In this document: piece by piece, positions 1 through 7,794 of the stretch | How positions within the stretch are numbered: the stretch's first letter is position 1 | How the letters are laid out: the number at the start of each line of letters is the position of its first letter | From: an uncultured delta proteobacterium | Lineage (GTDB): Bacteria; Desulfobacterota; Binatia; UBA9968 | Length of the DNA stretch: 64,000 nt | Assembly: GCA_963727625.1 (NCBI GenBank) | Contig: CAVSHR010000012.1 | Location: 96,001-160,000 of the forward strand | Reading direction: 5' to 3' | Position numbers and translations under genes: made by a program | Notes under the pieces: model-generated | What the model saw: the letters and a program-made list of their open reading frames with translations, nothing else | Database searches by the model: none | What the model was told of the DNA's origin: nothing

Positions 1-382
1 AGTCGTTGTTGTCGGGCTTGTCGAAGTCAATCACTTTCGCCTGCGCGCCTGCGATTGAGCCGTCTTTTCGGCGATACTCCACCGTCACTCCGTCCACGAG
101 CATGCGGTGCACGGCGCGGTTGCGCTCTAACATAGACGGCGCCTCGGTGCGTGTTAGTTTGCGGTAGGCGTCTTCCAGCGCTTCCGCGGGGAGGTCAGGA
201 TTGAGACGCACTAGCGCCTGGCGCAAGCGGCCTTCGAGAAAAACGTCGCGGTAGTTCGGATCGCTGCGCTCAGCGCCAAGCATACCGACCGCCAGGTCTG
301 GGCCGTGCCGTACCGCGTAGCCGAGCGCTTCGAGCCAGGCGAGTGCGGCTTGCTCGACGACGGATTCGGTGAAGTTGCTCAT
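1..382 (-). CDS. hsdR: Type I restriction endonuclease subunit R, 5' part (runs off window start)
   Basis: Hand translation from ATG at 382: [22 protein letters not shown]...[20 protein letters not shown]...[16 protein letters not shown]...[10 protein letters not shown], a typical HsdR N-terminus. It overlaps the upstream stop (ATGA) and lies downstream of hsdM/hsdS. Confidence 0.93.
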
Positions 383-1382
383 GCGCCGCGCTCCGTCAGC
401 AGATTGATGATCAGCCGCACCATCAAATCCTTGTTAGCTGGAGCGCTTTCGGCGATGAGCAACGCAAGCGCCGTCAGCGCCGACGGGTTCAATGAATGCG
501 CGATATGCTCTTGCCGCAGGTACAGCATGAACAGAAACGAGCCGATGCGCTTGTTGCCGTCAGAAAACGGATGATCCTTGATGACCAGATAGAGCAAGTT
601 GGCGGCTTTCTCTTCGCACGAACGGTACAGGCCCGCGCCGAACATGGTCTGTTCGATGCTGCCGAGAATACCTTCCAACGCCCCGCCACGCGGGTTTCCA
701 AACAACGGCGTGGCTTCCTGGCGCGCCATCAGTTCGCGCTTGAATTCAGCAATCGCCGCGCTGGCTCGGGTGAAATCCAGCACGCCCGACGACTGGCCGG
801 GCACCCGGCGGCAACCCCAGCCGATCCTCGTCATACTCAAGCAAGCAGCCGCCAGGTGTCGGCGTAGCCAGTGATCAATTCCAGGACTGCGCGGCCGGTG
901 TCATCCACCAGCGCCTGGTTTTGCAGAGTGCGCGCTAGAAGATCAAGCGTCTGCCGCGCTTCCAGCAGGCCGCGCTCAGCTAGGCGGGTTTGGTTGAAGC
1001 TGTAACCCCGGACCAAATGCTCGCGCAATACACGCGTGGCCCATTGGCGGAAGCGTACGCCCCGGCGAGAGTTAACCCTGTATCCGACGGAAATGATCGC
1101 GTCTAAATTGTAGTGTTTGAGGCTGCGCCGCACCTGCCGCTTGCCCTCAGTTTGAACTACTAAGAAATCCTTAGCAGTTGCCGCCTCCTCCAATTCACCG
1201 TCATCAAAGACATTTCTCAGGTGCATGAGCACATTTTCAGGGGTAGTGTCGAACAAGTCCGCCACTTGTCGCTGCGTCAGCCAGACCGTCTCCTGCTCCA
1301 GACGAACGTCTACCCGAACCTGACCGTCTGGCGCTTCATACAGTAAAACTTCGCCGCCAGGTGCTTCGGTCGGAGTGCTCAT
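379..1382 (-). pseudogene. rhuM: RhuM-family/Fic-Doc fusion, split by two single-base frameshifts (or sequence errors)
   Basis: ORF 837-1382 has RhuM motifs (ETVWLTQRQVADLF, HYNLDAIISVGYRVNS, FRQWAT). ORF 379-840 has the Fic/Doc motif HPFSDGNKR. The third frame between them reads LEYDEDRLGLPPGARP and would link the two. Confidence 0.85.
1155..1179. repeat. Intragenic inverted repeat in rhuM
   Basis: AACTACTAAG-aaatc-CTTAGCAGTT, 9 of 10 pairs (the mismatch is G-U on the coding-strand RNA). Encodes TAKDFLVV. Confidence 0.8.
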
Positions 1383-1414
1383 GACAGTAGTCCCAATTTA
1401 TGTTCGGGCCAGAC

Positions 1415-1507
1415 TCCTTCGGTTTGAACCGGTGCAATTTTTGCACTTACTGCCCCCGGATCACAATCGCCATCCTTGAAGGCGTTGCGAATATACTTGG
1501 AAAACAC
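1415..1507 (-). pseudogene. Fragment of a second rhuM allele
   Basis: VFSKYIRNAFKDGDCDPGAVSAKIAPVQTEG aligns without gaps to NVLMHLRNVFDDGELEEAATAKDFLVVQTEG of the adjacent RhuM. Contains the palindrome GTGCAA-ttt-TTGCAC (1432-1446). Confidence 0.75.
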
Positions 1508-1522
1508 CGGCTCTGAGCGTAC

Positions 1523-1714
1523 GTCGGGATTGAGACAGACAAGCGACTGCCGCAAGCGGACTCCGAGTACCACATCGCGATAGTTCAGATCACTCCGCTC
1601 GGCGCCGAGCATACCCGACGCGATGTCGGGGCCGTGCAGCACCGCGGAGCCCAGCGCTTCGAGCCAGGCGAGAGCAGCGTCTTCGACGCCGGATTCTGTG
1701 AAGACTGTTGTCAC
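1523..1714 (-). repeat. Diverged copy of the first ~63 codons of hsdR (matches 194-382)
   Basis: [64 protein letters not shown] versus Hsd[64 protein letters not shown]. The GTG start overlaps the stop of the 1711-2781 gene. Confidence 0.92.
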
Positions 1715-6009: not shown

Positions 6010-6062
6010 AAAAACAAAACCCCGCTGGAGGCCTTGCGGCTGATCCAACGGGGGGAAAATAC
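6010..6062 (-). ncRNA. Candidate structured leader / small RNA upstream of the NYN gene
   Basis: Minus-strand RNA CCCCGUUGGA-uca-GCC-GCAA-GGC-c-UCCAGCGGGG followed by UUUUGUUUUU: a 10-bp stem with a G-U pair, a GNRA tetraloop and a U-tract. Confidence 0.55.
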
Positions 6063-6069
6063 TGAATGT

Positions 6070-6098
6070 AATTTAGCCTGGGAGAGGGGGAGTGTCAA
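6070..6098 (-). promoter_or_regulatory. sigma70-type promoter for the NYN leader and gene
   Basis: TTGACA (6098-6093), 17-bp spacer, TAAATT (6075-6070). Confidence 0.7.
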
Positions 6099-6161
6099 GT
6101 GTGCAAAGGATCGATATCTCCCATCGTGGTCGCTAAAGGCATCGGGCCGATAGCGCATCTC

Positions 6162-6233
6162 CCAGGGGATTTGTCCAACAAGCTTTTGAACAAATCCGCG
6201 CCTTCTGAACTTTGCAGCGCTCTTACTCGCCAT
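6162..6233 (-). pseudogene. Remnant of a second yhcG-like allele directly after hsdM
   Basis: Starts MASKSAA (intact YhcG starts MAGKNSA), then FVQKLVGQIPW, similar to the DUF1016 VQQxxxQIPW segment. Contains the inverted repeat GGATTTGT...ACAAATCC (6167-6197). Confidence 0.55.
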
Positions 6234-7794
6234 ACCCAAGCTCCTTCAGGTTAGCGGCGATGGCCGAGTCAAGCTTCGCGGCTTCCTTCTGCTGCTCACG
6301 CAGCGTCGCGGTTAGGCGCTTCATCTTGTCTTCGAACGGCTCGCCGTCGTCTTCGGCGGCTTCGGCGCCGACGTAGCGGCCAGGGGTGAGGACGTGGTCG
6401 TGCTTGCGGATGTCTTCGAGCTTCGCTGCTTTACAAAAGCCTGGAACGTCTTCGTACTTGCCGGCGTCCCCTTCGACTACGCTCAGGGCAAGCTTATCGC
6501 CACGCCAAGCGTGGTAGGTGCCGGCAATCTTGGCGAGATCGTCGTCGGTGAGCTCGCGGTGCACGCGGTCGATCATCGTGCCGAGCTTGCGCGCGTCGAT
6601 GAAGAGCGTTTCGCCGCGGCGATCGCGGAATCTTCCGTTCCTCTTGTTGCGCGCGAGGAACCACAGACAGACCGGGATCTGCGTGGAGTAGAAGAGCTGG
6701 CCGGGCAGCGCGACCATGCAGTCCACCAGATCGGCCTCGATGATGGCCTTGCGGATTTCGCCCTCGCCCGACTGGTTCGACGACATCGAGCCGTTGGCGA
6801 GGACGAAGCCGGCGAGGCCGGTTGGCGCGAGGTGGTGGATGAAATGCTGCACCCAGGCGTAGTTGGCGTTGCCTGCGGGCGGCTTGCCGTAAACCCAGCG
6901 CTTGTCGTCCTTGAGCAGCTCGCCGCGCCAATCGCTGTCGTTGAACGGCGGGTTGGCCAGCACATAGTCGGCTTTGAGGTCGGGGTGCTGGTCGTTGTGG
7001 AAGGTGTCGCCGTGGGCGATCTGCGCGTCGATGCCGCGGATGGCGAGGTTCATCTTGGCCAGGCGCCAGGTGGTGTAGTTGGACTCCTGGCCATAGATGG
7101 AGATATCACCGAGCTTGCCGCTGTGGGCCTCGATGAACTTCTCGCTGCTGACGAACATGCCGCCCGAGCCGCAGCAGGGGTCGTAGACGCGGCCCTTGTA
7201 GGGCGCGAGCATTTCGACCAACACGCTCACCACGCGCGATGGCGTGTAGAACTGCCCGCCCTTCTTGCCTTCGGCGCTGGCGAACTGCGAGAGGAAGTAT
7301 TCGTAGACTCGGCCAAGCGTGTCTTTGGCGCGGTCGGCCGGTGCGCCGAGCGCGATGTCGCTGACGAGATTGATGAGCTGCCCGAGGCGCTGCTTGTCAA
7401 GACCGGTGCGCCCGAAATCCTTCGGCAGCACACCTTTGAGCGAGGAGTTATCACGTTCGATGGCGGACATCGCGTCGTCCACGAGCGTTCCGATGGTCGG
7501 CTGCGGCGCGTTGGCTTTAAGATGCTGCCAGCGCGCCTCTTTCGGCACCCAGAAGATGCTGACGGCGCGGTATTCGTCCGGATCTTCGGGGTCGGCGCCC
7601 TGTGCCTTCTGCGCCTCTAGCTCCGTGTGCTTGGCCTCGAACGCATCCGAAATGTATTTGAGAAAAATCAGGCCAAGAACAACATGCTTGTACTCCGCCG
7701 CGTCCATGTTGTTGCGCAGCGCATCCGCCGCGGCCCAGAGCTTTGCTTCGAAACCCTGGTTGTCGGTGGTGTCGGTAGTTTTGCTTTTTGCCAC
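6223..7794 (-). CDS. hsdM: Type I R-M N6-adenine DNA methyltransferase subunit M
   Basis: [25 protein letters not shown] (SAM-binding motif I), ANPPFN (motif IV), LTPGRYVG. Confidence 0.97.
6469..6492. repeat. REP-like 24-bp element in-frame inside hsdM
   Basis: CCCTTCGACTACGCTCAGGGCAAG, an imperfect hairpin with CCCT/AGGG arms. Adds LALSVVEG between WRGDK and DAGKYEDV. Confidence 0.6.

Follow-up and report, generated by a model that had tools for sequence, protein, structure and literature searches.

We describe a type I restriction-modification (R-M) operon in a window of 64,000 nt (the whole stretch of DNA that was analysed, from contig CAVSHR010000012.1 of an uncultured delta proteobacterium). 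The locus, which is read on the minus strand at window positions 1-7794, is an ordinary embedded-defence type I operon: four additional genes, the cargo, are lodged between its hsd genes. Its boundaries keep a readable record of how this cargo was stacked, in the form of short extra copies of hsd gene ends. We refer to the three copies of the hsdM 3' end as tail1 (the end of hsdM itself), tail2 and tail3, and to the extra copy of the hsdR 5' end as the head. The four-cargo stack probably arose by successive recombination with type I operons bearing other cargo, whereby the relics were kept where the operon stays translated; this view draws on the codons and reading frames of the relics, here and in related loci.

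On the minus strand the order is hsdM (with tail1), a scar open reading frame (ORF), a NYN-domain gene, the tail2 ORF, yhcG, the tail3 ORF, hsdS, a DUF3644 gene, the head ORF, a RhuM-Fic gene and hsdR, and the operon measures 10 kb from hsdM to hsdR. HsdM (6223-7794; 523 amino acids) is a type I methyltransferase, with Pfam matches to N6_Mtase (PF02384, 7.8e-110) and HsdM_N (PF12161, 6.8e-28) and a PADLOC match to MTase_I (4.6e-215); the last ~105 nt of its gene (6223-6327) constitute tail1. At the other side the functional hsdR 5' end occupies 2-382 and the gene continues past the left window edge to coordinate -2761. In the genome it is an intact frame of 1047 amino acids, a full-length type I subunit with HSDR_N (9.8e-15) on its first 127 residues, and tblastn gives full-length matches of 53-84% identity to hsdR in dozens of related loci. 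All four cargo genes (NYN at 5366-5995, yhcG at 4121-5245, DUF3644 at 1711-2781 and RhuM-Fic at 379-1382) lie on the minus strand between hsd genes and belong to PADLOC families of embedded candidates.

The extra gene ends were recovered by a repeat finder as three 70-nt copies of the hsdM 3' end (4051-4120, 5236-5305 and 6224-6293; 83-89% identical), a longer pair of hsdM ends (5226-5339 against 6214-6327; 85% identical) and two copies of the hsdR 5' end (176-374 against 1505-1703; 78% identical). When the tails and heads were searched against the whole 6.62-Mb assembly with blastn, matches were obtained at this locus only, and other hsdM-like genes of the genome reach at most ~35% protein identity. 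Judged by repeat and codon comparison, the tail2 ORF (5235-5369; 44 codons) contains ~34 last codons of what appears to be another hsdM allele, and the tail3 ORF (4050-4124; 24 codons) ~22 last codons of a third. The head ORF (1379-1714; 111 amino acids) is homologous to the resident hsdR 5' end over 1505-1703: its first ~66 codons apparently stem from another hsdR allele and are followed by ~125 nt of unmatched sequence, a segment for which both blastn and tblastx returned no match.

A stop/start overlap is present at all ten junctions read from hsdM to hsdR. Tail1, tail2 and tail3 terminate in GGGTATGGCGAG, GGATATGGCGGG and GGGTATGGCGGG, respectively, according to the pattern GG(G/A)TATGGCG, of which the inner ATG begins the next ORF. 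The tail3 ORF starts on a GTG (4124-4122) that overlaps the yhcG stop as GTGA, and its own stop lies over the hsdS ATG (4060-4058), with an AAGGAG Shine-Dalgarno sequence 7 nt ahead of that ATG. Likewise, the GTG of the head ORF (1714-1712) overlaps the DUF3644 stop as GTGA, and its end overlaps the RhuM start as ATGA. Both the common tail ending that supplies the next ATG and the bridging position of these two GTG-started ORFs had been pointed out in an earlier note on this DNA, and reading the sequence confirms them. The ATG of the tail2 ORF (5369-5367), unmentioned there, overlaps the NYN stop as ATGA, and the end of this ORF overlaps the yhcG ATG.

To compare the copies we simulated neutral change, mutating one copy at random with a transition bias of 2 and the observed number of changes (5000 runs); under these conditions ~23% of the changed codons are synonymous. 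Tail2 (5235-5336) differs from the hsdM end (6223-6324) at 13 of 102 nt, with 12 codons changed of which 9 synonymously, exactly the figures given in the earlier note, and this ratio of 9:3 is rare among the simulations (P = 0.0002). Between tail2 and tail3 the synonymous to non-synonymous ratio is 12:0 (21 codons) and between the two hsdR heads 18:14 (62 codons), neither of which was reached in any of the 5000 runs; tail1 and tail3 show a ratio of 5:2 (P = 0.004). A synonymous bias is also seen for tail pairs in related loci L053, L071, L037 and L040 (P <= 0.002 for ungapped pairs, and P = 0.04 for tail1/tail2 of L071). Given this strong bias, the differences arose while each piece belonged to a working gene. 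The codon pattern thus indicates that the extra copies are what is left of other hsd alleles which were once functional, as the earlier note had proposed for tail2.

For comparison we assembled 160 loci, 80 from a scan with one genome per species and 80 from a metagenome scan. HsdM of the genome set shares 67-90% protein identity with that of the present locus, and the hosts include Acidobacteriota, Gemmatimonadota, Chloroflexota, Planctomycetota, Proteobacteria, Nitrospirota and methanogenic archaea. (The hsdM family as such occurs in at least 10 bacterial phyla and in methanogenic archaea, which implies a very wide horizontal movement of the operon family.) Extra hsdM tails were sought downstream on the same strand with a profile of the last 40 HsdM residues, extra hsdR heads by tblastn with the first 70 HsdR residues (a truncated head upstream of a full gene), and extra hsdS ends with a profile of the HsdS C-terminus.

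At least one relic was found in 28 of the 160 loci, namely 12 with an hsdM tail, 10 with an hsdR head and 7 with an hsdS tail (one locus holds two kinds). The tails are divided over 7 of the 80 loci in the genome set, 72 of which have at least 1.5 kb downstream (L053, L064, L071 with three tails, L076, L008, L037 and L040), and 5 of the 57 metagenome loci with at least 1.5 kb downstream (L151, L161, L162, L167 and L168). Extra heads are present in 5 of 58 genome-set loci with a head (L062, L072, L075, L080 and L015) and in 5 of 49 such metagenome loci (L096, L104, L129, L126 and L138); L028 was excluded as a head-relic locus, being a plain frameshift. A second hsdS 3' end in a short ORF was detected in 7 of 119 loci with an hsdS end (L067, L065, L144, L063, L139, L081 and L162). 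According to Pfam, the cargo between the copies in relatives comprises RhuM, YhcG, Fic, Abi_2, an NTase pair, TIR, Macro, SLFN/AlbA_2, Mrr, a deaminase, AbiEii and unknowns. Three-tail arrays are limited to two cases, the present locus and L071, and a few relics look recent (L064, 94% identical; L076, 97-98% identical over about 290 nt).

Among the 40 relatives searched, none has the locus in the same setting. As a separate observation, a genome of the same genus contains a collapsed locus (L092, G014:C3:478001-497000, ~10773-10786), in which hsdM is joined directly to hsdR: the first ~1040 nt of hsdM (86% identical) run into hsdR from about codon 33 (85% identical). This version has lost hsdS together with all cargo, and its flanks are not those of the present locus.

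The relics have fixed outer ends and variable inner ends. The end of the 40-residue profile is reached by 12 of the 13 extra tails in relatives and by both extra tails here; in the exception, L008, the match within hsdM itself ends at profile position 34 and the downstream copy reaches 40. Tail relics adjoin the start of the next gene, usually hsdS, except in L071, where an IS200-type transposase gene has moved in. In all 11 head relics the first HsdR residue retained is one of residues 1-7, and the relic starts no more than ~12 nt from the upstream stop. The inner ends of the tails, on the other hand, begin anywhere between profile positions 1 and 21, and those of the heads stop after 23-215 residues. 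Lengths vary even within one cargo family: the relic after YhcG counts ~22 codons here, ~100 in L076 and at least 40 in L162. For RhuM-Fic, L096 (hsdM 91% identical) has the same layout of head relic, RhuM-Fic and hsdR, with a relic of 89 residues fused directly to the RhuM ATG. Since the relic at the present locus has ~66 residues plus 125 nt of unmatched sequence, these joints were made more than once. Furthermore, conservation is lower in the last 34 codons of hsdM than over the whole gene (nucleotide identity of 0.667 against 0.747, for 78 alleles compared with the present locus). The variable relic lengths and the weaker conservation of the hsdM tail relative to the gene body lead us to favour an illegitimate joint within the gene end, together with a homologous crossover elsewhere, over conserved arms or an integron-like site.

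Certain combinations of cargo and hsd end recur. The yhcG ATG lies inside an hsdM tail here and in L076, L037, L023 and L162; RhuM-Fic overlaps the hsdR start here and in L019, L042, L046 and L096; and DUF3644 stands directly before an hsdR start or relic here, in L007 and in L104.

Two relics in relatives have an anatomy of their own. The relic in L037 (2657-2884) is an internally deleted second hsdM instead of a simple tail, in which ~37 first codons of an hsdM from another family are fused in frame to ~35 last codons of the present family. In L071 (13470-14041) a third hsdM tail relic is followed by the IS200-type (Y1) transposase gene in place of hsdS, and the Tyr codon that held the ATG has changed. 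A linker ('MKP...') common to the tail2 ORF here and its counterpart in L040 was considered as well and dropped, being too weak.

The reading frames of the relics point in one direction. Twelve tail relics have any start that overlaps the upstream stop, and in 11 of these a start is in the relic's own frame; counted over all tail relics, this amounts to 11 of 15 for the own frame against 1/15 and 0/15 for the other frames. Read backwards, the frame of the relic reaches the upstream stop uninterrupted in 12 of 15 tails (against 5/15 and 4/15 for the other frames), where it should be considered that in three cases the relic shares the frame of the upstream gene, which makes openness impossible. 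On the hsdR side, 8 of the 11 head relic ORFs stop on or at most 6 nt before the next start, compared with 2/11 for either of the other frames. We regard these statistics as signs that the leftovers are kept as bridging micro-ORFs: the relics seem to act as small ORFs that keep the operon translated as one chain, and the idea of a translational relay gains comparative support from the frame enrichment. A change of the relic's Tyr codon in L167 and L168 (to TGT and CAT) left a GTG or ATG for hsdS in place; selection would therefore act on initiation and not on the peptide. The survival of the tail end as such is explained already, because both the Shine-Dalgarno sequence and the start codon of the following gene lie within it.

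A precedent for such coupling is EcoKI, where the start of hsdS lies within the 3' end of hsdM and translation of the two genes is coupled (PMC3510504). Here, too, the hsdM end carries a Shine-Dalgarno sequence and the ATG of the next gene. The difference is that the presumed coupling element is reiterated at this locus as a relic ahead of each inserted or displaced gene.

From the repeats, their origin in other alleles, their recurrence, their variable ends and the frame enrichment we infer both a recombination route and the coupling function. Each event would consist of one homologous crossover at some point in the hsd genes common to both operons, plus one illegitimate joint within the hsd gene end that borders the cargo slot. 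The cargo would arrive with an hsd end already coupled to it (an hsdM tail with yhcG, or RhuM-Fic with an hsdR head), and the resident copy of that gene end would stay behind as a truncated relic. Only relics compatible with a working operon would persist, such that an hsdM-tail relic keeps its last codons (Shine-Dalgarno sequence and next ATG) and a head relic keeps its start over the previous stop. Most relics would then be open, in-frame small ORFs from the upstream stop to the downstream start, and the operon a chain of presumably coupled frames. For the present locus the simplest order of events would be the following. The starting point would be hsdM (with tail3) followed by hsdS; an hsdM end with yhcG would have come in, leaving the tail3 relic; a further hsdM end, accompanied by the NYN module and a remnant of yhcG, would have followed, leaving the tail2 relic. 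On the hsdR side, a DUF3644-hsdR arrangement would have been cut at about codon 66 by an incoming RhuM-Fic-hsdR.

A number of observations weigh against this scheme. By a narrow margin, the sequence nearest to tail2 and tail3 is the resident tail1 (87% identity, where other alleles reach 85-86%), although with pieces so short nearest-neighbour identity cannot name the tail donors. The one line of evidence for a foreign origin of tail2 and tail3 is the synonymous bias, taken over few bases. A sliding-window scan for the nearest allele along hsdM gave no clear breakpoint, the scan of the tails was likewise indecisive, and no parental pair was found, so that neither a homologous crossover nor microhomology at the joints can be demonstrated. 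In L076, the relic of ~290 nt, at 97-98% identity to the resident gene, has a synonymous to non-synonymous ratio of 4:4 and could equally be a local duplication. The loci are not all independent either, with L053 and L161 resembling a single inherited event, and some of the upstream ORFs in the frame count are without a family match (L008 and L168). Stacking also exists without relics: L042 has DUF3644, RhuM-Fic and hsdR with a single head. Finally, because NYN brings its own promoter-like site and a terminator-like hairpin, the NYN junction need not depend on a relay, and the hairpin could even interrupt the operon.

Given the structure of the locus, it might be argued that an hsdM tail together with its cargo forms a mobile cassette, which loops out through the tail repeats and re-inserts by a single homologous (Campbell-type) crossover with the gene ends as arms. 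Integration of such circles gives the same succession of tail, cargo and tail; the uninterrupted identical run of ~25 nt common to tail1 and tail2 is in principle enough for RecA-dependent exchange, which makes looping-out possible; and cargo does move with an hsd end, three-tail arrays having been met with twice (here and in L071). We nevertheless consider cassettes of this kind unlikely in view of the lower conservation of the hsdM tail, the very different relic lengths within one cargo family (the three YhcG relics, and RhuM-Fic heads of ~66 against 89 residues), and the fact that heads of up to 215 residues and the fusion in L037 look like truncated genes instead of arms. The earlier note had presented the conserved gene ends as homology arms and the locus as a cassette array. 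Neither description is supported, the former on account of the conservation values and the latter since the ends of tails and heads define no constant unit. Three further points of the note do find support: repeated capture of cargo by the comparison with relatives, the lack of an integrase by the flanks examined, and the presumably preserved coupling of expression by the overlapping junctions here and the bridging frames enriched across loci. Direct repeats on both sides of each cargo gene, and frame errors or variants of the assembly in hsdS and RhuM-Fic, would also suit attachment sites of a site-specific recombinase encoded elsewhere (integron-, Xer- or integrase-like), a tandem duplication, or an assembly artefact, a group of explanations that we hold to be highly improbable. 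The boundaries of the relics are not fixed, and no integrase, transposase or tRNA was found in ~18 kb on the hsdR side or in the three large ORFs checked on the hsdM side, up to ~12.6 kb. The 11 flanking ORFs scanned contain no recombinase, the flanks contain no tRNA, and the locus lacks the make-up of an integron array, all of which makes a site-specific system appear unlikely. A local duplicate would not show what is seen between the copies, namely differences at 13-22% of positions of which most are synonymous. As the source of the repeats, an assembly chimera is unlikely: the architecture recurs in 28 other assemblies, and a contig of run X2 (another sample, ~90% identical) spans the junction of hsdM end and scar (6034-6285). 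A 151-nt contig of soil run X1 is identical to the window across hsdS and tail3 (3973-4123), where X1 may be the source sample and hence not independent support. The two runs cover small shares of the stretch (0.07 and 0.05), the X1 contigs being without 4659-6302, and a few candidate tail joints among the run contigs were rejected as coming from other organisms at low likeness. Within this thin coverage no contig connected tail1 with tail2 or tail3, and neither a deletion nor a circle junction was seen.

A closer competitor accepts the recombination and denies the function: the relics would be real scars that do nothing, with overlaps inherited from the parental operons and frames that are recent and undecayed. 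The starts of the head relics are plainly ancestral hsdR starts, the synonymous bias means little decay since insertion, the Shine-Dalgarno sequences of the next genes lie within the tails so that a relay is not strictly needed, and the arrangement is missing in 3 of 15 tail and 3 of 11 head relics. Against this stands the phase of the frames. A random phase predicts about one third of the starts in frame, where 11 of 12 are observed in the relic's own frame, and the relic frame is likewise open more often than the other two. We give idle scars perhaps one chance in several, and retain successive recombination with selection for translated joints as the preferred reading.

PrrC, embedded in the EcoprrI type I operon, is a known case of a gene nested in an R-M locus. 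Defence genes embedded in type I R-M operons have been surveyed under the heading of 'guilt by embedding' (Payne et al., bioRxiv 10.1101/2024.01.29.577857), and further examples are DarTG2 between hsdS and hsdR in the enteropathogenic Escherichia coli RRDM island, a site termed a potential recombination hotspot (PMC12255303), and TgvAB in Vibrio cholerae VPI-2 (PMC11411939). As in these systems, the present locus has same-strand cargo between hsd genes, and all four cargo families derive from the Payne survey. These papers list what is embedded and not how; gene-end relics, their polarity and bridging frames are undescribed there. The Payne preprint uses none of the terms 'recombination', 'remnant' and 'truncat-' (0 occurrences), and its survey left out systems with pseudogenes (bioRxiv 10.1101/2024.01.29.577857). 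Our literature search, which covered papers apart from their supplements, retrieved embedding and hsdS shuffling and no repeated hsdM, hsdR or hsdS gene-end relics; a search for homology-facilitated illegitimate recombination in combination with type I R-M brought up no relevant paper.

Homology-facilitated illegitimate recombination, reportedly described in naturally transformable bacteria by de Vries and Wackernagel in 2002, inserts foreign DNA by means of one homologous anchor and one illegitimate joint. It would give the layout of relic, cargo and intact gene, and variable joints are compatible with it; the difference is that at our locus neither parents nor microhomology at the joint were found. 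Genomic islands that enter the 3' end of a gene bring a replacement end (a duplication of the att site), for which they use an integrase and a fixed crossover core. They resemble the locus in that a diverged direct repeat of the gene end flanks the insert and the gene is left intact, whereas the present locus involves 5' as well as 3' gene ends and yielded neither an integrase nor a fixed core. With integron arrays the locus has in common that promoterless genes of the same orientation are stacked behind a common promoter, each bounded by repeats. It differs in having neither an integrase nor an attC-like fixed site, in that its repeats are coding relics of variable length, and in an order that looks like accretion next to hsdM and hsdR.

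The nesting of defence genes in type I R-M, bacteriophage exclusion (BREX) and similar operons is known, and in the papers searched their entry and continued expression are left unexplained. The relics form a concrete, testable footprint: they suggest that cargo and the adjacent hsd end move as a unit for which no dedicated recombinase is needed, and that selection keeps only those joints that preserve translation of hsdS and hsdR. A footprint as frequent as this (28 of 160 loci) could be mined to order acquisitions and to find new embedded defence genes. More tentatively, and with somewhat greater doubt than belief on our side, the relics might represent an 'adaptor grammar' that is general and under selection in type I R-M operons, perhaps in other hosts of embedded defence as well. 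In it, each cargo gene would move between distant phyla (archaea included) while welded to the hsd end that supplies its ribosome site or coupling start, and cargo would stack beside hsdM and hsdR in order of arrival, the relics being kept as bridging micro-ORFs. If so, the leftover ends would tie the hsd genes, which are sensitive to stoichiometry, into a single chain of translation, one could read from the relics how a defence locus acquired its cargo, and embedding would be explained without a dedicated recombinase.

The remaining parts of the operon can be described briefly. The scar ORF (5985-6239; 82-84 codons in the ORF list, without a Pfam match) has its ATG (6233-6231) within tail1, and its stop overlaps the NYN start. 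The scar is a composite of a YhcG-type 5'-end remnant of ~10-20 nt (6214-6233) and the NYN leader (5996-6164), and the tail1/tail2 repeat extends beyond the hsdM stop to 6214. Eight database ORFs that match the scar ORF align only across its invariant 3' part, i.e. the NYN leader, and one of them starts within an hsdM tail; searches with the scar by blastn and tblastx gave nothing except the NYN leader in L015. By pattern and structure scans the leader has a promoter-like site (TTGACA-17-TAAATT, 6098-6070 on the minus strand), a 10-bp GC-rich hairpin followed by a U-run (6053-6014, minus strand) and a further hairpin that pairs the ribosome-binding site with codons 2-3. It is also found 5' of NYN homologues outside R-M operons (in L015 and in one genome of the same genus). 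Scanning the leader with Rfam gave only a sub-threshold match to anti-hemB (20.5 bits against a gathering score of 49.5, E = 0.32). From its predicted elements, the leader looks like an attenuator or another cis-regulatory RNA.

As for the cargo, the first gene matches NYN in Pfam (4.7e-10) and HEC-09 in PADLOC (1.2e-11). The second belongs to the YhcG/DUF1016 family of PD-(D/E)xK nucleases (YhcG_C 1.8e-63, DUF1016_N 2.3e-37; PADLOC PDC-S02 2.7e-139), and its ATG lies within tail2. The third, labelled 'HEPN' by the earlier note, is DUF3644 in Pfam (2e-14) and PDC-S19 in PADLOC (7.5e-154), with an RDAAQH string in the translation; a PDB sequence search with this protein gave no match, and homologues of 77-82% identity lie between hsdS and hsdR in L007, L067 and L042. 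A scan with NCBIfam provided no name for any cargo gene except for a sub-threshold match to DOC_P1. The fourth gene, RhuM-Fic/DOC (Pfam RhuM 1.2e-25 and Fic 9e-11; PADLOC PDC-S23 9.3e-72 and PDC-S05 2.1e-74), is split over two ORFs (837-1382 and 379-840). In L019 RhuM and Fic are one gene (an intact ORF of 333 amino acids; 89% and 85% identical), from which the present sequence differs by two single-base length differences (~838-848 and ~793-796) within ~60 nt.

A similar break affects hsdS (2781-4060; Methylase_S 2.9e-14, PADLOC Specificity_I 1.2e-58), which is divided into two ORFs (3197-4066 and 2781-3197) near 3220. This break is an assembly error or a variant, because one additional base follows 3220 in a 254-nt contig of run X1 that otherwise equals the window sequence. 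Given the single-base breaks in hsdS and RhuM-Fic, the assembly may hold further indel errors elsewhere.

Upstream of hsdM, a consensus scan shows a promoter-like site on the minus strand (TTGGCA-17-TAGAAT, 7984-8012), which is a pattern match only, with 10 of 12 positions matching. Just 5' of this region lies an element of ~90 nt (window 8108-8211) with 29-nt inverted arms (8111-8139 and 8183-8211). Copies that are 97-100% identical occur on contigs C4, C5, C8 and C9 of the same genome, and the element may be a repeat resembling miniature inverted-repeat transposable elements (MITE) or repetitive extragenic palindromes (REP).

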